Shown: positions 2,468 through 49,205 of the stretch, piece after piece | How the letters are laid out: the number at the start of each line of letters is the position of its first letter | How positions within the stretch are numbered: position 1 is the first letter of the stretch | Virus record (IMG/VR): IMGVR_UViG_3300030330_005471 | DNA: 64,000 nucleotides | Strand: one strand, 5' to 3' | DNA from: a virus | Taxonomy: Duplodnaviria > Caudoviricetes | Program-made: the position numbers and the translations under genes | The notes under the pieces: model-generated | Told to the model about the DNA's origin: nothing | Database searches by the model: none | Seen by the model: the letters and a program-made list of their open reading frames with translations, nothing else

Positions 2468-3805
2468 ATGGCCTATAAATTTTCAAAAGGTTCGCAAGTT
2501 ATCGGAGATCTAAAAGCAGAAGATGATGCTCAAGGAGATACTGAGATAGATTTTAGCGAAGATAAAATAGATCTAAAGACTGGTGGTTCGACAAGGTTGT
2601 CAATCGAGAATAATGAAATAACCACAACGGTACCGATTCATATCAGCGGATCTGTAACTGAAGGGTTGAGAATAGGAAAAGCGGGAAGTCATTATAGAGA
2701 AATACAATTTGAGACCGACGGTGTAGATACAGCGTTTATACAAGTTGATTCATCCGAAGGTTTGGTAATTGGCTGCCAGTCTGTCAATGATGAAATAATT
2801 TTTCAAACAACTGATGGTGTCGGTATTGCCGAAAGGATGAGAATAGCGGCAAATGGCAAGGTTGGTATCGGAAACACAGATCCACAAATTGATTTACATA
2901 TTGAAGGAGTTCACCCTAGAGTAAGGGTTGAATCAAGTAATGGATCTTATCCCGGCTTCGAACTGTCGGATCAAGGCACTAGAAAATGGGCTTTACTTAA
3001 TGACCCATCTGACGATAAATTTTTAATCAAGACAGATGCAAATACTAGATTTGTTATAGAGCAAGATGGCAAGGTTGGCATTGGTTCTGATAGTCCATCT
3101 CACAAACTTGACATTAACGGAGATATCCGAGTTAGAGGAAATGATATACGAGACAACTCAGGAAACCCTGCGATTACTTTTGACGGCTCAGCAAACACAA
3201 CAATCAATGGAACTCTATCAGTTAACAATTACACATTGCCTGCCTCTGATGGAAATAATGGACAGGTTCTTCAAACAAACGGAAGTGGACAGCTTAGTTT
3301 TGTTGATGTTGATGATGGAGAAGGCGGTGGCGGCGGTGAAACACCAGAAGTTTTAAAAGTCGGATTGAATTCAGATCTTACATTACAGACAGGAACATAT
3401 CACACACTTGCTCTAGATGTTGTTCAGTTTGACACGTTTACCGGAGGAGCAGGATGGAACACAGGGTCTTACAATTTTGTTGCTACGGAAGCAGGATATT
3501 ATGATATCCAAGCAGCCTTAGTTTTTGACGCAATTCAAAGCGATATAACTCAATATCAAATATATTTGGTCAGCACCAGCTCAGCTAGCACTACAAATTC
3601 TTCTGGTATCCCATTTATAGCTCTAAACCAATACAACAATAACCCAGCACAAGTAGATATGAGAACATTTCATCTTAGCACAATAGCTCATTTTAGCACA
3701 AACCAAAGTGCTAGTATACAGATTCGTCAAGTTGGCGGAACGAGTAATAGTACAAAAGTAAAAGCTGGTTCAAACATAAGTTATGTTACTATAAAAAAGC
3801 TGTAG
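2468..3805 (+). CDS. Fibre/adhesin protein with GKVGIG repeats and a C1q-like C-terminal domain
   Basis: ERMRIAANGKVGIG and RFVIEQDGKVGIG repeats, LPASDGNNGQVLQTNGSGQLSF motif, C-terminal FDT..YNFVATEAGYYDI. Confidence 0.7.
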   Translation: MAYKFSKGSQVIGDLKAEDDAQGDTEIDFSEDKIDLKTGGSTRLSIENNEITTTVPIHISGSVTEGLRIGKAGSHYREIQFETDGVDTAFIQVDSSEGLVIGCQSVNDEIIFQTTDGVGIAERMRIAANGKVGIGNTDPQIDLHIEGVHPRVRVESSNGSYPGFELSDQGTRKWALLNDPSDDKFLIKTDANTRFVIEQDGKVGIGSDSPSHKLDINGDIRVRGNDIRDNSGNPAITFDGSANTTINGTLSVNNYTLPASDGNNGQVLQTNGSGQLSFVDVDDGEGGGGGETPEVLKVGLNSDLTLQTGTYHTLALDVVQFDTFTGGAGWNTGSYNFVATEAGYYDIQAALVFDAIQSDITQYQIYLVSTSSASTTNSSGIPFIALNQYNNNPAQVDMRTFHLSTIAHFSTNQSASIQIRQVGGTSNSTKVKAGSNISYVTIKKL

Positions 3806-23974: not shown

Positions 23975-25255
23975 ATGACTAAATTTAACGGTTCAAATAA
24001 AACAAAATCATCATTTGAGGCTTACTTCAACAGAACCAAATGGAACAGTGAAGCATATGATACAGACATATTAGACCCTCAGACAAACAAAAACGAACAG
24101 ATCGAGCCAATAGTGTCGAAAAAATTTAATCTTTCCGAACGGCATTTGTTTGGGCTTGTGAATTACGAAGGAAAACCGGTTGAGCCAATGACAGCATATT
24201 TGGAATCGTTTCCGTTAAAAATGGCCAAGGAAGAACTCAAGTCAGTATTCCCGTTTTTTAAGAATCAAATCTTAGACCTTAAGAAGGTGCTAGACAAAAC
24301 AAAACTTATTAATGTTTCTCAAAACAATAAATGGATAAACAATATCACAATTTATCGAGCATATGACCCTCCTCAAGAATTGTATACACAATATCTATCA
24401 ACAATAGTCTCAGACTTTGTCGATAATGGCATAAATGCCGAAGATGATATTGGTAAAAGGTTCCGCTCTTACAATATAACACATTTTGAGAGCTTTGTCA
24501 ACAATTTTTTATCTTTTTGTGAGATAAAATATGAAAAACAACCAATATTGTATAGCACATGGTATCTATCTGGTAGAAATTCGATGTATTCATCAGGACT
24601 TAGAGTGAAGATAAGTGATCTTGAGTACGGAGAAGACCAACCATTGTATAGTCAGTTAATAAACACACCAGAATTTGAGTGCTACAAAAAAGCCGTTAAG
24701 TCAGTTGGCCTTGCCTTTGACTTTAATGACCCATCGGTCTTGGTACCAGACTTCGGTTCTCCAGCGATAGAACCATATTTATCTTCTCAAACTAATATAT
24801 TTACTTATTATAGATCTACCAATTATAATGATTATAATTTATTATATAATATATTAATTAATTTATATAATTTATATACAACTAAACAACAGTTTGTAAT
24901 TAAATTCTCAGATTCATGTGGTAAATTAAAATGGGATTTTAAAAAGTTATTTATTGCTCCAATCAATCCAGAATTAAATGATCTTTCGATATATCTTAAA
25001 TTAAAATCAATCGAGGATCCTTCATTAAACAACCGTCAGCTCGCAACTCTTAAAAAAAATGCGGAATTCTTTCAAAAAAGATTTGACAACCAAACCTCAA
25101 TAGGATATATTAATGATATCTACTTGAATTTGTATTATTCAAAACCATTTTCGTTTAAAGATCTTTACAATAAAGTACTTTTACGAGAACAGAAGAAACA
25201 AGAACAAATAGGTACCAGCATATTCGGAGGTAAGCATGGTATTTCAGGTTATTGA
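23975..25255 (+). CDS. Hypothetical protein, last gene of structural module
   Basis: 426 aa ORF with RBS; no motif recognised. Confidence 0.6.
   Translation: MTKFNGSNKTKSSFEAYFNRTKWNSEAYDTDILDPQTNKNEQIEPIVSKKFNLSERHLFGLVNYEGKPVEPMTAYLESFPLKMAKEELKSVFPFFKNQILDLKKVLDKTKLINVSQNNKWINNITIYRAYDPPQELYTQYLSTIVSDFVDNGINAEDDIGKRFRSYNITHFESFVNNFLSFCEIKYEKQPILYSTWYLSGRNSMYSSGLRVKISDLEYGEDQPLYSQLINTPEFECYKKAVKSVGLAFDFNDPSVLVPDFGSPAIEPYLSSQTNIFTYYRSTNYNDYNLLYNILINLYNLYTTKQQFVIKFSDSCGKLKWDFKKLFIAPINPELNDLSIYLKLKSIEDPSLNNRQLATLKKNAEFFQKRFDNQTSIGYINDIYLNLYYSKPFSFKDLYNKVLLREQKKQEQIGTSIFGGKHGISGY
25083..25111 (+). promoter_or_regulatory. sigma70-like early promoter for the polA gene
   Basis: TTGACA-17-TATATT inside upstream CDS. 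Confidence 0.6.
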
Positions 25256-26423
25256 CGACAAAAAAGAGTGCTTAGGGTATTTCTCAAATGGAAAATTGAG
25301 GTTTCGCAAACCAAATGATACTCTAACCGCTACTTGGGATTGGTCATCCCACATTGGAGATCTCGATGTTCAGTTGGCAAGAATATATGCCGACGGAAAG
25401 AGCATTTCCGAAGCGTGTCCCGAACATCTCAAAACGAGATGGGAGACGCATGAGAGAAGAATAAAAGCACATATTCGTTCATTCATCCATTCGGGTGTCA
25501 ATATGGAAGATGTTTGTTTTTATGACCTCGTACCAGAGAGACATGTTGCTCATTACTACGAAACTCTCAATGAAATAACCGAATGGGTTCTTCAAAACAA
25601 TGACAGACCCCGTCATTATCGCTTACTTCACGACACAACAGTAATGTGTAAAGAAATAGCTAACCAAGAGGTGAGAGTGGATTGGCCTCTTCTCAAGAAA
25701 TACGCAAAAACCGATCAAAAAGCTTTTCATATTGCTAAGCGATATTGGGAACAAAAAGTTTTTGTTAAATATAACCCTTATGGAACGGTCACAGGCCGTT
25801 TGGGACTTGAGGAGGGGTCTTTCCCCATCCTTAACTTTAAGAAAGAAATAAGAGACGTTATCGTCCCTAAATGGGACGGTTTTGTTGAGCTTGACTTCAA
25901 TGGTGCCGAGTTAAGGACCCTACTACACCTCTCCGGGCACCCACAACCCACAGGAGACATTCATGATTTCAATCAAAGCCACATTTTTAATGATAATATT
26001 TCTCGAGATGATGCGAAGACAAAGATCTTTGCATGGTTATACAACCCGACTTCAAAAGCAGTTGACACTGAGTACTACGATAAATCGAAAGTATTGGAGA
26101 AGTGCTATAATGATGGAGTTGTCACTACTCCGTTTGGAAGAACAATACCTTCAGATGATTTCCATGCACTCAACTATCTCATACAATCAACTTCGTCGGA
26201 CAATTTCCTTGATAGGGCAAACGCCATCCATCGATTCTGTCGAAACCTCAAAACAAATGTAGCGTTCCTTGTGCACGATTCAATTATATTAGATGTTCAC
26301 GCATCTGAACGAGACGAGATAAGAAAACTTATTGAGATATTCTCCGATACAAAACTTGGAGAGTTCAAGGTAAACGTTTCAATGGGCAAAACCCTTGGAT
26401 CAATGGAGAAAGTACAAGGGTGA
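25236..26423 (+). CDS. polA: Compact family A DNA polymerase
   Basis: GTVTGRL; motif A ELDFNGAELR; motif B RDDAKTKIFAWLY; ALNYLIQST; motif C VHDS. Confidence 0.85.
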   Translation: MVFQVIDDKKECLGYFSNGKLRFRKPNDTLTATWDWSSHIGDLDVQLARIYADGKSISEACPEHLKTRWETHERRIKAHIRSFIHSGVNMEDVCFYDLVPERHVAHYYETLNEITEWVLQNNDRPRHYRLLHDTTVMCKEIANQEVRVDWPLLKKYAKTDQKAFHIAKRYWEQKVFVKYNPYGTVTGRLGLEEGSFPILNFKKEIRDVIVPKWDGFVELDFNGAELRTLLHLSGHPQPTGDIHDFNQSHIFNDNISRDDAKTKIFAWLYNPTSKAVDTEYYDKSKVLEKCYNDGVVTTPFGRTIPSDDFHALNYLIQSTSSDNFLDRANAIHRFCRNLKTNVAFLVHDSIILDVHASERDEIRKLIEIFSDTKLGEFKVNVSMGKTLGSMEKVQG

Positions 26424-26448
26424 TTTTACAAAAAAAGGAGAAAAGACA

Positions 26449-27258
26449 ATGGTGATTATAGGACTTGGTGAAGCAGGAAAAAACATATGCTCTAAAATGC
26501 CCAAAAACGGCAACATACGGACAATAGTTGTCGACGGGGGTAAACACCTTCCGAAGTGTTCAACACACGAAGAATACGAAGCTAGCGTCCCTAAGATGGC
26601 AAATAAGCTTAAGCTTGGCAAACAACAAGATATCTGGCTCATCACAGCAGGAGCTGGCAAGGTTTCTGGTGCATGTTTGGCAATATTGGAACAACTTAAA
26701 GACCGAATAATAAATGTAATCCATATCTCGTCCGATCCTATTCTTCTTTCAAAGACTCAAGTAAAACAAGAACGAGTGGTTTTCAATGTTTTACAGCAAT
26801 ATGCAAGGTCTGGCATGATAGATGGTTTGTGGTTGTTCTCAAACCCTCAAATTGAAGAGTTCGTTGGAGAAGGTTCAATCGAGAACTATTATGACAATAT
26901 TGACAATGCGATCGTCAACTTTATTTCAAACTATGGATATTTCTCAAATACCGAACCGTTTATGGGATCGCATCATGAGCCCAAGGAGATCTCCCGAATT
27001 CGTACCGTGAGTCTCGGAAACATAGAAAATAATCAAGAAAATTTATATTTTTTACTTGACAACATAACAGAATCATGTTATTATTATAGTGTAAGTGAAG
27101 AGGATAAAAAAAATAACAAAAACTTCTTGACAAATGTTAAGAAACATGTTATAATAGATAAAGAGAAAAACATTGAGTCATCATTTGGCTTATGGGAAAA
27201 CTCTTCCAACTTCTCTTATTTTTATTCAGTAAAATATACACACTATATCCAAGAATAA
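26449..27258 (+). CDS. Divergent tubulin/FtsZ/PhuZ-like protein
   Basis: IIGLGEAGKNI N-terminal loop; degenerate signature AGAGKVSG; ATG 26449 after GGAG. Confidence 0.6.
   Translation: MVIIGLGEAGKNICSKMPKNGNIRTIVVDGGKHLPKCSTHEEYEASVPKMANKLKLGKQQDIWLITAGAGKVSGACLAILEQLKDRIINVIHISSDPILLSKTQVKQERVVFNVLQQYARSGMIDGLWLFSNPQIEEFVGEGSIENYYDNIDNAIVNFISNYGYFSNTEPFMGSHHEPKEISRIRTVSLGNIENNQENLYFLLDNITESCYYYSVSEEDKKNNKNFLTNVKKHVIIDKEKNIESSFGLWENSSNFSYFYSVKYTHYIQE
27056..27155 (+). promoter_or_regulatory. Two sigma70-like promoters inside the tubulin-like CDS
   Basis: TTGACA(27056)-17-TATTAT and TTGACA(27127)-17-TATAAT, both with TG extended -10. Confidence 0.7.
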
Positions 27259-27310
27259 AAAAAATAAAAAAATAATTTGACAAACTTAACAAAGTATGTT
27301 ATAATATAAA
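27257..27310 (+). repeat. Promoter direct repeat, copy 1 (A8TA7 UP element + TTGACA-17-TATAAT)
   Basis: 53/54 identical to 27739-27792. Confidence 0.92.
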
Positions 27311-27324
27311 ATATCGGAGACACA

Positions 27325-27762
27325 ATGTATAGAGACACATCAAATCGTTCTGGTGATAAGAACCAGACAATAGTTAAACTCGACCTCATTAACAAAGGTT
27401 GGATCATTCTAGAACCTAGTTCCAGAGACTCAATCTATGACTTAGTGGTTGATCGAGGAAACGGAATGTTTGAAAGAGTTCAGGTCAAAACAATGTCCAA
27501 CAACTCTATCTCTAAAATTATTGATCGCTCTGGTGAAAGAGTTAGTCATAATGGAAAAACAAGAAACTCGATGGATTATGCACAACATGGCATTGAATGG
27601 CTAGTTGGAGTTGATAAAGAGGGAAAAACTTACTACTATCATATCTCAAACTATTCAAAGATCCCAACCAAGTCATTCAGTGTTAATAAGTATAAACCTG
27701 ATTTGTTTCCAAAATTCGACGTTCCAAACAGACACTCGAAAAAAAATAAAAAAATAATTTGA
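27325..27762 (+). CDS. Free-standing PD-(D/E)XK endonuclease (I-Ssp6803I/PDDEXK_5-like)
   Basis: GD..Q..V..DL..KGW.I.EP..IYDLVVDRG..ERVQVKT. Confidence 0.75.
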   Translation: MYRDTSNRSGDKNQTIVKLDLINKGWIILEPSSRDSIYDLVVDRGNGMFERVQVKTMSNNSISKIIDRSGERVSHNGKTRNSMDYAQHGIEWLVGVDKEGKTYYYHISNYSKIPTKSFSVNKYKPDLFPKFDVPNRHSKKNKKII

Positions 27763-27792
27763 CAAACTTAACAAAGTATGTTATATTATAAA
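27739..27792 (+). repeat. Promoter direct repeat, copy 2
   Basis: TTGACA 27759, TATATT 27782; the endonuclease stop codon lies in the -35 box. Confidence 0.92.
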
Positions 27793-27841
27793 TACATTAA
27801 AAAACAAACCTTTATTAAGGTCGCTCTTACATCGCTAAAAT

Positions 27842-27890
27842 AAAAAAAATAAAAAAATAATTTGACAAAATGTTGAAAACATGTTATAAT
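27842..27890 (+). promoter_or_regulatory. sigma70-like promoter with the same A8TA7 UP element
   Basis: TTGACA 27862-17-TATAAT 27885. Confidence 0.88.
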
Positions 27891-27973
27891 AATAACACGA
27901 TGGTTGTTCTGGGAGGTCAACCGAAACTCAACTCTCAAAAACAATTGACATTAACATTATATAAGGAGGAAAT

Positions 27974-28240
27974 ATGTCTACAACTAATACTACTATCATC
28001 AACGCTAACGTTTACACCGGAAGCTTCACAAAGAAAGATGGAACTGTGCGTACAATGCGTTTCTTGAAAGAGAATGCTGTTCCACAACGTCTTCGAGGTT
28101 CTGGAGTAAAGCCACGCTATCTTGACTCAAAGCACGAAGTAGTCTTTGATCTTGACCAAAATGGGTGGAGAGTGTTCAATCACAATACAGTCATTGACTC
28201 ACCAACCTTCAGTAAAGAAGAAGTCACCATCCAAGGGTAG
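27974..28240 (+). CDS. Small SH3/Sm-like (WYL_2/DUF2693-type) protein
   Basis: FTKKDGTVRTM..VFDLDQNGWRVF. Confidence 0.7.
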   Translation: MSTTNTTIINANVYTGSFTKKDGTVRTMRFLKENAVPQRLRGSGVKPRYLDSKHEVVFDLDQNGWRVFNHNTVIDSPTFSKEEVTIQG

Positions 28241-28396: not shown

Positions 28397-29152
28397 ATGG
28401 CTATAAATTTAGAAGCAATGCGAGCTAAACTAAACGCAAGCAAAAACGGCGTGAAAGCCAAAAAAGATAATACGAAGTGGCGCCCGAAAGAAGGTGATCA
28501 AACCATTCGTATTCTGCCAACGAAAGATGGCGACCCTTTTAAGGAGTTTCACTTTCACTACAACGTAGGAAAGAATCCCGGAATCCTTTGCCCCAAAGCA
28601 AACCATGGAGAAGATTGTCCTATTTGCAACTTTGCCTCAACATTATGGAGAGATGGAGTTCAAAATAACGACGATACAGCGAAACGAGAAGCAAAGAAAT
28701 TGTTTGTTCGTAAGCGATACTTCTCACCTATCTTGGTTCGAGGTGAAGAGGATGAAGGTGTGCGAGTCTGGTCTTATGGCAAGATGGCATATGAAACTCT
28801 ACTCGGACTTGTATTAGACCCAGACTATGGTGATATTACAGACTCTGAGGCCGGCACCGATATAGTACTGAACTATAACGTCCCCGGTACACCCGGTTCT
28901 TTTCCAAAGACCATTCTTAAGCCTCGTAGACGACCATCGGTTTTGTGTGATGATGATGTCGCGGATTGCGAAGCTCTACTAGACTCTGTTCCTGATATCT
29001 CAGGTCTGTTTGAACGTAAGACCTCCGATCAAGTTCAAGCTATATTAGATGAATTTCTATCGAATGAGACCTCCTCCGAAGGTCGATCATCTGAAACAGA
29101 GAAGTATGGGACTGACGCAGTCAACGATGCTTTCGATAAGTTAATGAGTTAG
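28397..29152 (+). CDS. Single-stranded DNA-binding protein (gp32-like)
   Basis: WRP..TIRILP, CP..GEDCPIC, RYFSPILVRGEEDEGV, DYGDITD..GTDI, acidic tail. Confidence 0.85.
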   Translation: MAINLEAMRAKLNASKNGVKAKKDNTKWRPKEGDQTIRILPTKDGDPFKEFHFHYNVGKNPGILCPKANHGEDCPICNFASTLWRDGVQNNDDTAKREAKKLFVRKRYFSPILVRGEEDEGVRVWSYGKMAYETLLGLVLDPDYGDITDSEAGTDIVLNYNVPGTPGSFPKTILKPRRRPSVLCDDDVADCEALLDSVPDISGLFERKTSDQVQAILDEFLSNETSSEGRSSETEKYGTDAVNDAFDKLMS

Positions 29153-29383: not shown

Positions 29384-29932
29384 ATGGAAGTTTTAATAGT
29401 TTGTGGTTTGTTTTATTTGGGTTTAGTTTATGCTCAATTACTTGAATGGGTGATACATAAACATCTTTTACACAAACTAGGAAAAGATAAAAAGAACAAG
29501 TTTTTTGCTTATCATTTCTACGAACACCATAGGTCATCAAGAAACAATCTTTTCTACGATGAACCATCAACAAAAGAAACCCTTTCCCTTGCTTTTTTAG
29601 CATTTCTACATATACCAGTTTGGTTTATTTCCGTGCCACTTTTCTGTGGTACTATTGCCGGTGCTCTGAGATACTATTATGTTCATCGAAAGGCACATTT
29701 AGAACCTGAATGGTGTAGAAAACATTATCCTTGGCACTATGCTCACCATATGGCAATAACACAGGAAAAAAACTGGGGAGTTACCACGGATTTGTTTGAT
29801 AGAATATTTGGAACCCGATTGGTGTATGTCGGAACTGAGAAAGAAAAGAAAGATACACAAAGAAGAATCAACAGACTAAGTAAAAGGAGAAACAATGGGA
29901 GAACTGATTCAAATGAAAGCAGGAAAGATTAA
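29384..29932 (+). CDS. Fatty acid hydroxylase/sterol desaturase family membrane enzyme
   Basis: His boxes EWVIHKHLLH, HFYEHH, VHRKAH, HYAHH; NWGVT..DRIFGT. Confidence 0.88.
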   Translation: MEVLIVCGLFYLGLVYAQLLEWVIHKHLLHKLGKDKKNKFFAYHFYEHHRSSRNNLFYDEPSTKETLSLAFLAFLHIPVWFISVPLFCGTIAGALRYYYVHRKAHLEPEWCRKHYPWHYAHHMAITQEKNWGVTTDLFDRIFGTRLVYVGTEKEKKDTQRRINRLSKRRNNGRTDSNESRKD

Positions 29933-46638: not shown

Positions 46639-47037
46639 ATGAATATTAATATTAACAATCTTGAAAACAAAGTGAAAAGAGAAAACAACTGGGACGAGGA
46701 AACTTGGAATCTCGCTTCCAAAGAATACATGAGGTTTCTCACACTACGTCAGAAGTACCCTTCGGCAACACTAGTTCCGAATGAATTGATTGACGCAGTT
46801 TGGCATGCCCATATCCTTAATACAGAGCAATACCATGCTGACTGTGATCGCCTATTTGGTAAATACCTTCACCATGTTCCGCATCTAGATGATGACGTAT
46901 CTGAAGAGAACGAACAAGGGTACCTTGAGACGCAAGATCTCTTCCAAAGAGAATTTGGAGAACCAATGTACGTCTCACAGGCAGCGAGGTGCCAAGGCAA
47001 ACCATGTCATGCACCAACGCCCTGTCGTTGCAGATAA
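46639..47037 (+). CDS. Glycine-rich-domain-protein (GRDP)-like family protein
   Basis: EYMRFL..LVP..IDAVWHAHILNT..Y..DC..FG.YLHH.P. Confidence 0.7.
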   Translation: MNININNLENKVKRENNWDEETWNLASKEYMRFLTLRQKYPSATLVPNELIDAVWHAHILNTEQYHADCDRLFGKYLHHVPHLDDDVSEENEQGYLETQDLFQREFGEPMYVSQAARCQGKPCHAPTPCRCR

Positions 47038-47085
47038 AAAAAATAAAAAAACCCCTTGACAAACAAGGGGTTTTGTGTTATAATA
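47034..47085 (+). repeat. Promoter direct repeat, copy 1, with inverted repeat over the -35 box
   Basis: 52/52 identical to 49127-49178; aaaaccccttg-acaaa-caaggggtttt; TTGACA 47056-17-TATAAT. Confidence 0.95.
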
Positions 47086-47111
47086 AATATAACAGACAAT
47101 AAGGAGAATAT

Positions 47112-49130
47112 ATGTCGGAAGAATTAGATATAAGAAAAAAATTTGACAACAACACAGACATTACAAGATCAATAAAAGAACTATTTGGACCAGAAAAAAT
47201 GTGGTTCAACTCTGCTAATGGTATTAATATAGCAAATCAAATATTATCAACAGCTAGAGTGTTTGATGAAAAGCATGGTCCAATTTTTAATTACAGTTTA
47301 ACAGCCCCAATGCAGTGTGGAAAAACACAAGCAATTAATACTGCGATTGCTCACATTTTTAAAACTAGAAAACAAAATATAAATTTAGTGTATTATATAT
47401 CAAACGCCAACAACGGCTTACAGGTAAAAACAATAAATGAGATAGCAAATTTTTGGCTTGAACTCCAAAAGTATGACAATTCATGGGAAATTTATAATAA
47501 CGGTGATGGTAAGATTGATGTTGTGTATAAAGATCAATGGAAATTGGAGATAAGAGTTATCCACAACGGAAATGCTAAAAGAATAAAAGACTCAATAGCT
47601 GATGAAATCAAGGCAAACAAAGAACAAGCAATACAAATAATCATATACGATGAAGCAGATCAAGCCTATGGAAAAGAGTCTCAAAGAGATAAATTTTCTC
47701 AACGAATCCTTCAAAGAGAACATGCTTATGATAAACAAAGCTTCTATCAAAGGCAGCTGCTTAACATGCTTGAGATATCAATTTCTGCTACAGACTTTGC
47801 AAACAAATTAGACTTTGAAAACACAACGATAAAAGAGTATACAAATTTTTTAAATTTCGAAGTCCACCCAGCATATTACGGATTGGACAGAATTCACGAT
47901 GAAGGCTATTATAATGAATCTTGGGGACTCATTGAAAAAAGTAATTTTGTGCAAGAAAAAGTTGATAAGTTTGTTACCAAGGTTATAAATCCATTTTTAA
48001 ATGGCACACACCGAGAACAAAACACAAGACCTTTAGGCATGATGAGGGTCAAACGTGGTAATAAAAATAAATTTCGGTTTGTCGATGCACTGAAAAACTC
48101 TACTAATTTAAACACAAAAGTAGCATCAGCCAACAACATACAAGAATTTAATAAACTAGTACATGATGATAAAACCAAACTAATCATCCTCTCTTACAAT
48201 GGAAAAGACTTTTCTAGAAGTGATGTTGAACAGATTATTCAAACTTTCAGAAAGGCAACAAAACCTGCATTTAAAAGTAAATTTTATAATTTTAATAAAC
48301 ATCAGAAAAAAGTTATTATTACTGTTGACGGAGTTATGAAAGCCGGAGATGATTTAATAGGTAAAAGCCTTGAATTTGTTGCTTTTTGGTGGGAAAGGTC
48401 ATTAAGTCAAAATTCAACATTTGAAGCTCCTTTGCAAAGTCTTGGGAGGGTATGTAAGATATCCTATAACAAGATTTTACCACCAATAGTATACAGTGAC
48501 CTTAGACTACCAAATATCATCAAACAATATACCACGGGTGAAAAAACAGCACACGAAATACCAAACAGAAATATTGGTAAGGTGAAAGAGAACAAGAAAA
48601 ATACAAACAGTTTTGTATTCTATTATGATTCAGAAGATGCAGAGCAGGCAAAAACCAAGATGGAAAAAATTGCTTCATTTTTTAATGAACATATTCCCAA
48701 CTTATTTCACCTTTGTGGCAAACCACGCTTCTATTATGGAGATAACTGGCCTGACGAGCATAAAGTGTGGAAAGGAAAGAGTTTTAAACACAATCAATCC
48801 TATCAGGAAAACGTCTCACCAACAGTTAATACGATCTGTGATAAAAGAGACTTCGTACTCAAAAACAATATCTTCCCACCGAACCTTGTGCAAGACGGTT
48901 TTGGCCAACTCCACAAGAACAAAGCAAATACTCGAATTTACGCTAAGAAGATTGGTAATATCTATAGATGTGCTTATGTGTCGACTTTTTTAGAGACAGA
49001 AAAAGTTATATGCGATTCTTTTGAAAAGTTTTCAAAAAGACCATCAGCCACCAACACAGTATATATAAAAACTAAACCTGAACAATACAAACCAAAAAGA
49101 GAAACACAGGTTAACAAAGAAGCATCATAA
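47112..49130 (+). CDS. SF2 helicase-like ATPase resembling Z1-domain R-M-associated proteins
   Basis: APMQCGKT, IIIYDEADQ, SATDFAN, YYGL, LQSLGR. Confidence 0.65.
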   Translation: MSEELDIRKKFDNNTDITRSIKELFGPEKMWFNSANGINIANQILSTARVFDEKHGPIFNYSLTAPMQCGKTQAINTAIAHIFKTRKQNINLVYYISNANNGLQVKTINEIANFWLELQKYDNSWEIYNNGDGKIDVVYKDQWKLEIRVIHNGNAKRIKDSIADEIKANKEQAIQIIIYDEADQAYGKESQRDKFSQRILQREHAYDKQSFYQRQLLNMLEISISATDFANKLDFENTTIKEYTNFLNFEVHPAYYGLDRIHDEGYYNESWGLIEKSNFVQEKVDKFVTKVINPFLNGTHREQNTRPLGMMRVKRGNKNKFRFVDALKNSTNLNTKVASANNIQEFNKLVHDDKTKLIILSYNGKDFSRSDVEQIIQTFRKATKPAFKSKFYNFNKHQKKVIITVDGVMKAGDDLIGKSLEFVAFWWERSLSQNSTFEAPLQSLGRVCKISYNKILPPIVYSDLRLPNIIKQYTTGEKTAHEIPNRNIGKVKENKKNTNSFVFYYDSEDAEQAKTKMEKIASFFNEHIPNLFHLCGKPRFYYGDNWPDEHKVWKGKSFKHNQSYQENVSPTVNTICDKRDFVLKNNIFPPNLVQDGFGQLHKNKANTRIYAKKIGNIYRCAYVSTFLETEKVICDSFEKFSKRPSATNTVYIKTKPEQYKPKRETQVNKEAS

Positions 49131-49178
49131 AAAAAATAAAAAAACCCCTTGACAAACAAGGGGTTTTGTGTTATAATA
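49127..49178 (+). repeat. Promoter direct repeat, copy 2 (dnaE promoter)
   Basis: TTGACA 49149-17-TATAAT 49172. Confidence 0.95.
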
Positions 49179-49205
49179 TAAACATCAATATCTCGGAGGA
49201 TAATA

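Follow-up and report, generated by a model that had tools for sequence, protein, structure and literature searches.

A nuclease gene between duplicated promoters in an uncultured marine myovirus as a probable single-gene module of the type exchanged through promoter repeats in T4-type phages

T4-like phages carry free-standing homing endonucleases, encoded by the seg (GIY-YIG) and mob (HNH) genes. In the hyperplastic regions of T4-type phages lie PeSLs, early promoters that match the sigma70 consensus and are combined with an AT-rich tract and a stem-loop (PMC2839356, PMC4122927). Recombination at these elements deletes, inserts or replaces single genes and can release mini-circles (PMC2839356; PMC4122927), and the phages in which PeSLs have been described include RB49/phi1, PST/T4 and nt-1/KVP40 (Arbiol 2010, PMC2839356; Comeau 2014, PMC4122927). 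Here we examine a 64,000-nucleotide stretch of the IMG/VR virus record IMGVR_UViG_3300030330_005471 (Duplodnaviria; Caudoviricetes), called the window from here on, in which a gene for a 145-amino-acid nuclease is enclosed by two nearly identical 54-bp promoter copies. Our reading, to which we give a probability of roughly 0.72, is that the 482-bp unit formed by one promoter copy and the gene is a single-gene module of the PeSL type, sitting in a hyperplastic spot and inserted, deleted or replaced through recombination between promoter repeats.

The locus shares with the PeSLs its repeated sigma70-consensus promoters on the coding strand, the AT-rich upstream tract that holds the stop codon of the upstream gene, the stem-loop that most copies are predicted to form between or over the -35 and -10 boxes, and the setting in hyperplastic regions, where single non-essential genes are flanked and where the breakpoints of insertions, deletions and replacements between close relatives fall in the repeats. 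It differs in several respects. The host phage is a distant marine relative of T4: its major capsid protein shares 47% identity with the one of Flavobacterium phage immuto, and its polymerases are PolA and DNA polymerase III alpha instead of a family B enzyme. The stem-loop of the promoter pair around the nuclease gene is weak, and the cargo has a recognisable function instead of being an ORFan. Finally, mini-circles have been shown experimentally in RB49/phi1, whereas here only assembled sequences were read.

The closest described relative of the protein itself is I-Ssp6803I (structure 2OST), a PD-(D/E)XK homing endonuclease encoded in the group I intron of a tRNA-fMet gene from a cyanobacterium. 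The two belong to the same Pfam family, PF11645, are of similar length (145 against about 150 amino acids), and align residue for residue over the catalytic stretch YDLV.D ... VQVK, but their overall identity is only 17-20%, and the gene studied here is free-standing where that of I-Ssp6803I is intron-borne. The close homologues of that family have been described as cyanobacterial in general (PMC3384342), whereas this nuclease is carried by a phage.

The nuclease gene and its promoter copies

The two copies agree at 53 of 54 positions and lie 482 bp apart from start to start, the sole mismatch falling in the -10 box, which reads TATAAT in the left copy and TATATT in the right one, and the nuclease gene is the only sizeable open reading frame (ORF) between them (Table 1). 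An earlier note on this stretch had described this arrangement, and the coordinates bear it out down to its details: the left copy starts within the TAA stop codon of the upstream gene (27256-27258; longest ORF 26395-27258), and the right copy, Pb, provides the last seven codons of the nuclease (KKNKKII) together with its TGA (27760-27762), which lies inside the -35 hexamer TTGACA. Since the stop codons of Pb (TAA at 27747, TAA at 27755 and TGA at 27760) occupy three different frames, any ORF that enters the A-tract is terminated there. The left promoter scores 12/12 against the consensus with an extended -10, its spacer containing a weak stem-loop and the TG, and a GGAG lies 8-11 nt upstream of the ATG of the nuclease gene.

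Table 1. Features of the window around the nuclease gene and the second cassette, and contents of the slot in related loci
Feature	Position	Strand	Remarks
Upstream conserved gene, up270 (270 aa)	26446-27258	+	Longest ORF starts at 26395; left border of the slot
Two near-consensus promoters with extended -10	27056-27084, 27127-27155	+	Within the up270 coding sequence
Left promoter copy	27257-27310	+	A8-T-A7-TAAT tract 27257-27276; -35 TTGACA 27277-27282; 17-nt spacer ending in TG; -10 TATAAT 27300-27305
Nuclease gene (145 aa, PDDEXK_5, I-Ssp6803I-like)	27325-27762	+	Between the 54-bp copies
Variable N-terminal segment of the nuclease gene	~27350-27437	+	About codons 9-38; approximate coordinates
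Right promoter copy, Pb	27739-27792	+	A-tract 27739-27758; -35 27759-27764; -10 TATATT 27782-27787
Pb leader	27793-27839	+	No ORF; conserved small hairpin 27808-27821; in every allele
Third promoter, Pc	27840-27896	+	-35 27862-27867; -10 27885-27890; predicted to drive the WYL_2 gene
WYL_2 gene (88 aa, Sm-like SH3 barrel)	27974-28240	+	PF10902, E 4.8e-6; right border of the slot
gp32	28397-29152	+	PF08804, E 2.5e-16; next after the WYL_2 gene
Second cassette	47034-49187	+	Promoter copies 47034-47094 and 49127-49187, 93% identical over 61 nt
672-aa ORF	47112-49130	+	Between the promoter copies of the second cassette; upstream of the DNA polymerase III alpha gene
Slot in the window			Pb-like copy, nuclease, Pb, Pc
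Slot in L006, L007, L011			Empty: three tandem promoters Pa, Pb, Pc only; 318 bp; no ORF
Slot in L008			Pb pair and spacer as in the window, enclosing two membrane-protein ORFs of 64 and 49 aa
Slot in L004			165-aa ORF, also ending KKNKKII, and 60-aa ORF
Slot in L009			205-aa ORF, probable GIY-YIG protein
Slot in L010	6786-8315 (ATPase)		509-aa MzaB-like GHKL ATPase (PADLOC E 4e-17)
Slot in L012			Glutamine synthetase, 109-aa ORFan between two near-identical promoters, signal-peptide protein
Slot in L001, L002, L003	3403-4431 (glutamine synthetase, L001)		Glutamine synthetase, signal-peptide protein, nuclease

The copies belong to a larger family of promoters. With one mismatch allowed, the window contains 13 matches to the motif where 0.01 would be expected; a separate count by strand gives 15 on the coding (+) strand and 1 on the other. 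Five promoters, all with an extended -10 and scoring 11-12 of 12, are packed into 27056-27890. Spacer stem-loops are found in most promoter copies, with a mean z of -2.2. The 14-nt spacer and the bases past the -10 are identical in the two copies around the nuclease gene, while the spacers of other promoters in the window are 62-86% identical, and because of this difference the 54-bp repeat reflects shared ancestry over and above the promoter consensus. Spacers that agree at 12 or more of 14 bases are found in 7 of 75 pairs of neighbouring promoters and in 1 of 91 pairs of non-neighbours. The repeats are predicted to function as early promoters, and the nuclease is probably made at an early stage of infection. 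Of the two promoters inside up270, the one at 27127 fully matches the motif in L004 and L114 as well (L-numbers designate related loci). In the orthologue from L001 it is degenerate, having been lost through a few changes that are either synonymous or conservative.

The assignment of the protein to the PD-(D/E)XK endonucleases, made in the same earlier note, is upheld by Pfam, in which PDDEXK_5 (PF11645) is matched with an E of 6.6e-12 and 46.1 bits against a gathering cut-off of 26.1, and by its fold, which is nearest to I-Ssp6803I. The AlphaFold (AF2) model has a predicted local distance difference test score of 89.9, and in a Foldseek search with this model the four top matches are chains of 2OST (E 1.5e-6 to 1e-4; template modelling score 0.63), followed by archaeal Hjc resolvases. 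There are 102 homologues, mostly from marine metagenomes (many of them from Tara), with identities of 44-94%, and the close ones listed all belong to PF11645. Residues D39, Q53 and K55 do not vary among 39 homologues, and they align (phmmer) with the D and the QVK of I-Ssp6803I; the catalytic motif is thus intact, and the enzyme probably acts on DNA. The ratio of nonsynonymous to synonymous substitution rates (dN/dS) is 0.10 between the window and L001 and 0.10-0.20 overall, by which measure the gene is under purifying selection. Neither a group I intron nor any other Rfam family reaches its gathering score anywhere in the window, and the nuclease gene is for this reason considered free-standing.

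The gene is a mosaic, in which at least two diverged N-termini of about 30 codons are combined with a nearly identical C-terminal two-thirds. A diverged version of the N-terminal segment is found in L114 (about 1060-1150) and in Logan contigs, in which a joint from 27311 to 27438 (runs X6 and X7) represents the same N-terminal replacement downstream of a promoter. The segment is also the least conserved portion of the 39-homologue alignment. By these comparisons the nuclease gene itself recombines, and the exchange of its N-terminus may be a swap of specificity or of a binding partner.

Alleles of the slot and their breakpoints

The nuclease lies in a slot bordered by up270 and the WYL_2 gene. 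Orthologues of up270, which has no Pfam family at threshold, are present in nine IMG/VR viral contigs at 89-96% amino-acid identity. Among the 44 metagenome loci that contain both flanking genes, the gap between them can be as short as 30 bp or as long as 3396 bp, and three of these loci carry the nuclease; on this variation, we regard the interval as a hyperplastic spot. Empty-site alleles, for which the earlier note had suggested a search, do exist: three relatives have nothing but promoters in the slot, and L012 lacks the nuclease that L001 carries. Other relatives have different genes there (Table 1), and from their annotations the cargo includes defence-like and metabolic genes. An orthologue of Pb is found in every allele, filled or empty, as are the ORF-less promoter units (84 and 103 bp; 6657-6850 in L006). 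The hairpin of the Pb leader carries in L016 a double change in its stem, from C:G to G:C. Possible roles of this leader are those of a small RNA, of a leader element, or of a weak terminator that serves the opposite strand.

The breakpoints between alleles fall in the promoter repeats. L001 (filled) and L012 (empty) have gp32 and recA genes that are 100% identical at the nucleotide level. Around the nuclease, their identity on the left runs through the A-tract and TTGACAAA, and on the right it resumes at the next TTGACA, such that an 84-bp ORF-less unit in one is exchanged for a 484-bp nuclease unit in the other with both breakpoints in the A-tract/-35 part of the promoter. The identity between the two genomes changes in steps at the module borders (97.8%, 93.0% and 99.6%), and each module therefore has a separate history. 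When the window is compared with L008, divergence begins after the left -10 box and ends within the right A-tract. The crossovers thus fall at varied points within the promoter repeat, which accords better with homologous than with site-specific recombination. In addition, the tail of the Pa unit, which contains no ORF, is matched by the leader of the L008 cargo, and this suggests that the empty units are the remains of lost cargo. Logan contigs from four marine runs were also inspected; these contigs break at the promoter repeats, and gaps in their coverage were not counted as absence. A further Logan joint, from 27284 to 27876, was set aside as uninformative because one of its sides consists of only 28 nt of A-tract and -35.

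A second cassette of the same design, which the earlier note had also pointed out, is present upstream of the DNA polymerase III alpha gene. Each of its promoter copies has a G+C stem-loop that overlaps the -35 box in the manner of a terminator-promoter (hairpins of the pair at 47056 and 49149; fold energy -14 kcal/mol, z about -5). The 672-amino-acid ORF that it encloses belongs to no Pfam, PHROG or PADLOC family, and both this ORF and a GRDP-like neighbour are absent in 26 of the 26 closest relatives checked; the region is, by this comparison, a second variable spot.

In the mechanism that we propose, modules would be joined by a repeated early-promoter element that consists of an A-rich tract with stop codons in all frames, a consensus -35 and an extended -10, the two boxes being separated by a 17-nt spacer that usually forms a stem-loop. 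Genes lying between two such elements would be inserted, deleted or replaced by homologous recombination, and the exchange could take place either between co-infecting relatives or through an excised circle containing one promoter and one gene. A circle made of leader, nuclease and A-tract would integrate into a resident promoter, or a double crossover would occur in the two flanking promoters. In either case, the outcome would be just what the window shows: cargo enclosed by two direct, almost perfectly matching copies of the complete promoter, with each gene receiving a promoter of its own and each cargo ORF being ended by the A-tract/-35 of the promoter that follows.

It was originally proposed that a selfish nuclease had inserted itself by regenerating the promoter on both sides. 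A promoter does stand on each side, but the duplication is not tied to the nuclease: promoter pairs also surround the cargo of L008, the ORFan of L012 and the 672-amino-acid ORF, and L114 has the nuclease without the left copy, so that the left copy is not an obligatory footprint of nuclease insertion. Because the pattern is that of PeSL shuffling, and because other cargo uses the same pair, the nuclease is not needed for the promoter to be duplicated, and PeSL-type recombination, not the nuclease, best explains the duplication.

Several points weigh against this reading. L114, the closest relative of the window by gp32 (97%), has the order up270, nuclease, Pb and Pc, and the indel that distinguishes it from the window at the left copy is 53 bp long and flanked by a 6-nt microhomology, ATAAAA. 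The stem-loop of the nuclease promoter pair is AT-rich and weak, at -5.1 kcal/mol (z -2.5), and probably does not stop transcription, in which it differs from the G+C stem of the second cassette. The assembled contigs, which break at the repeats, contained neither a circle junction nor an intermediate of recombination.

Homing, accessory function and duplication in place as possible alternatives

One alternative is that the gene is maintained by homing. A free-standing endonuclease would cut nuclease-less relatives near the locus during co-infection, and repair would copy the gene together with its promoter, the promoter repeats being merely the nearest homology available for repair; as the trigger of recombination, such cutting would be compatible with PeSL-type exchange. 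In sequence and fold the protein belongs with I-Ssp6803I, and PADLOC returns a weak 'homing endonuclease' match (E 0.0013). Its distribution is patchy, as the three of 44 loci attest, and it is present or absent in genomes as nearly identical as L001 and L012. Across the phage family it occupies several intergenic positions, beside gp32, recA, a FEN-like gene or tRNA genes: in distant members it lies between recA and the FEN-like gene (L018, L026-L029) or beside tRNA genes (L019, L022, L033). The surroundings of the homologues were read from IMG/VR loci that had been located with the 39-homologue alignment. The dS between the window and L001 is 0.42 for the nuclease, below the 0.62-0.69 of the flanking core genes, and the nuclease of the window is 93% identical in amino acids to that of L001 and 81% to that of L114, though L114 is the closest relative by gp32.

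The same slot may also receive other nucleases. The 205-amino-acid ORF of L009, to which Pfam and Foldseek assign nothing significant, has a GIY...YIG-like motif that is conserved in 13 homologues, and in VIA-align its top match is T4 EndoII at a middling Z of 5.7, followed by the GIY-YIG domains of UvrC and I-TevI. For the 165-amino-acid ORF of L004, Pfam, PADLOC and hhalign give no support for a nuclease; only leads from an atlas point to DpnI- or PDDEXK_5-like folds, and it is possibly another PD-(D/E)XK-like protein.

The resemblance to the seg and mob genes extends to a small, patchily distributed nuclease gene among replication and recombination genes, with its own promoter and with positions that vary from relative to relative; here, however, the nuclease is of another superfamily, its divergence tracks that of core genes, and it is known from sequence alone. 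At larger distances its identity, at 57-65%, keeps pace with the 51-72% of recA, gp32 and the FEN-like gene, which speaks for long residence rather than for sweeps. Non-nuclease cargo occupies the same junctions, so that the nuclease is not required in cis, and purifying selection on it is strong. No co-conversion tract is visible between L001 and L012, whose right flanks are identical in any case. All characterised members of its family are intron-encoded, and the window contains no group I intron. We consider homing plausible, though less likely than not.

Alternatively, the protein could be a non-selfish early nuclease that degrades the DNA of the host or of competitors, like T4 EndoII (denA), or that resolves junctions, like Hjc, and would then be one of several interchangeable nucleases of the slot that are kept for the benefit of the phage. 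The low dN/dS and the large set of mostly marine homologues are in keeping with this, as are the Hjc resolvases that rank second among the structural matches and the likeness of the L009 protein to T4 EndoII. Domains of PF11645 are also found in systems with which bacteria defend themselves against phages (PMC10952713). Several relatives have the gene at one fixed place between recA and the FEN-like gene: in L018 and L026-L029 (about 3001-3430) its ORF either borders on the start of the FEN/RNase H-like gene or runs into it, and ahead of the ORF lie a G+C terminator and a promoter. This arrangement looks like that of a resident gene more than that of a recent invader. On the other hand, near-isogenic relatives do without the gene, so that it is not the essential resolvase, and the nearest solved structure belongs to a homing enzyme with site specificity. 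Homing and an accessory early function, whether denA-like or of an exclusion type, account for the data about equally well, and like homing we consider the accessory function possible rather than probable.

A more specific version of the homing idea is that this nuclease represents, within the I-Ssp6803I family, the first homing endonuclease that is both free-standing and carried by a phage, that it competes for a hot spot beside gp32 and recA with a GIY-YIG and perhaps another PD-(D/E)XK nuclease, and that it is retargeted by swapping its N-terminal segment (about codons 9-38). We think this somewhat doubtful; in its boldest form, if true, cuts by the nuclease at or near the promoter hairpins would drive the shuffling of cassettes throughout the phage family.

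Because L114 carries the nuclease without the left copy, the promoter may instead have been duplicated in place. The nuclease would already have stood after the upstream gene, as it does in L114, and the left copy would have come later from the downstream promoter by ectopic gene conversion or duplication, giving the nuclease its own promoter; the repeat would then be no mark of gene insertion. The 53-bp indel with its microhomology accords with such a history, as does L016 with its nuclease lacking an adjacent upstream promoter, and the two copies in the window, at 53/54, are far closer to each other than the two flanking copies of L001 are. Yet the data from L114 equally fit a 53-bp deletion in that genome, and since its nuclease is itself a mosaic, L114 is no simple ancestor. 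Moreover, L008 has the same perfect pair around unrelated cargo in the same place, for which an exchange of cargo between pre-existing repeats is the easier explanation. We consider duplication in place unlikely.

Finally, a chance likeness of the two copies through convergence on a strong-promoter consensus, without common ancestry, is conceivable in that about 35 of the 54 positions (A-tract, -35, TG and -10) are near-invariant in this promoter class, but it is highly improbable and was rejected, since the 14-nt spacers and the bases after the -10, where other promoters of the window differ, are identical as well and spacer identity is concentrated in neighbouring pairs.

The phage and the significance of promoter-bounded modules

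The window comes from an uncultured marine myovirus that is related to T4 at a distance, and it encodes a gp23-like capsid protein, a tail sheath protein, gp32, a RecA/UvsX-like protein, a split PolA, DNA polymerase III alpha, ribonucleotide reductase and GroEL. The capsid, tail sheath, gp32 and RecA/UvsX-like genes would suit a T4-type myovirus, but the polymerases are PolA and polymerase III alpha, and cultured relatives are remote. The best entries in phage collections reach at most 47-54% identity in the capsid protein, and the cultured phages nearest by this protein, with capsid identities of only 41-47%, are the 'immuto' phages of Flavobacterium, one phage of Microcystis, and Rhodothermus RM378. 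A search of INPHARED found no near relative; its DNA matches were promoter look-alikes in Staphylococcus phages and its protein matches were ORFs of Paenibacillus phages at 32% identity. In public data, the DNA around the nuclease locus is found in at least seven marine metagenome runs from three studies, and at least 591 IMG/VR stretches encode a relative of the polymerase III alpha.

The surroundings of the slot vary as well. The split PolA of the window consists of ORFs at 23975-25255 and 25236-26423, and between the gene for its C-terminal part and the 270-amino-acid gene, L001 (2339-2587) has an additional ORF of 82 amino acids that the window (26420-26446) lacks. Downstream, between gp32 and recA, a gene of the fatty-acid-hydroxylase family (29384-29932) is also present in L004 and L008 and has no match in L001, L007, L009 and L012; by this distribution it is another accessory module. 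The space between gp32 and recA is much shorter in L001 than in the window.

If the promoter repeats indeed act as recombination joints for accessory genes, the PeSL idea, known from a small number of T4-type phages in culture, would also apply to marine myoviruses of a large, uncultured group. New here are the phage group, a clean series of filled, empty and differently loaded alleles with breakpoints at the level of single bases, and a cargo with a recognisable function. That cargo also marks an abundant and conserved family of marine-phage nucleases as candidate free-standing homing or exclusion enzymes.

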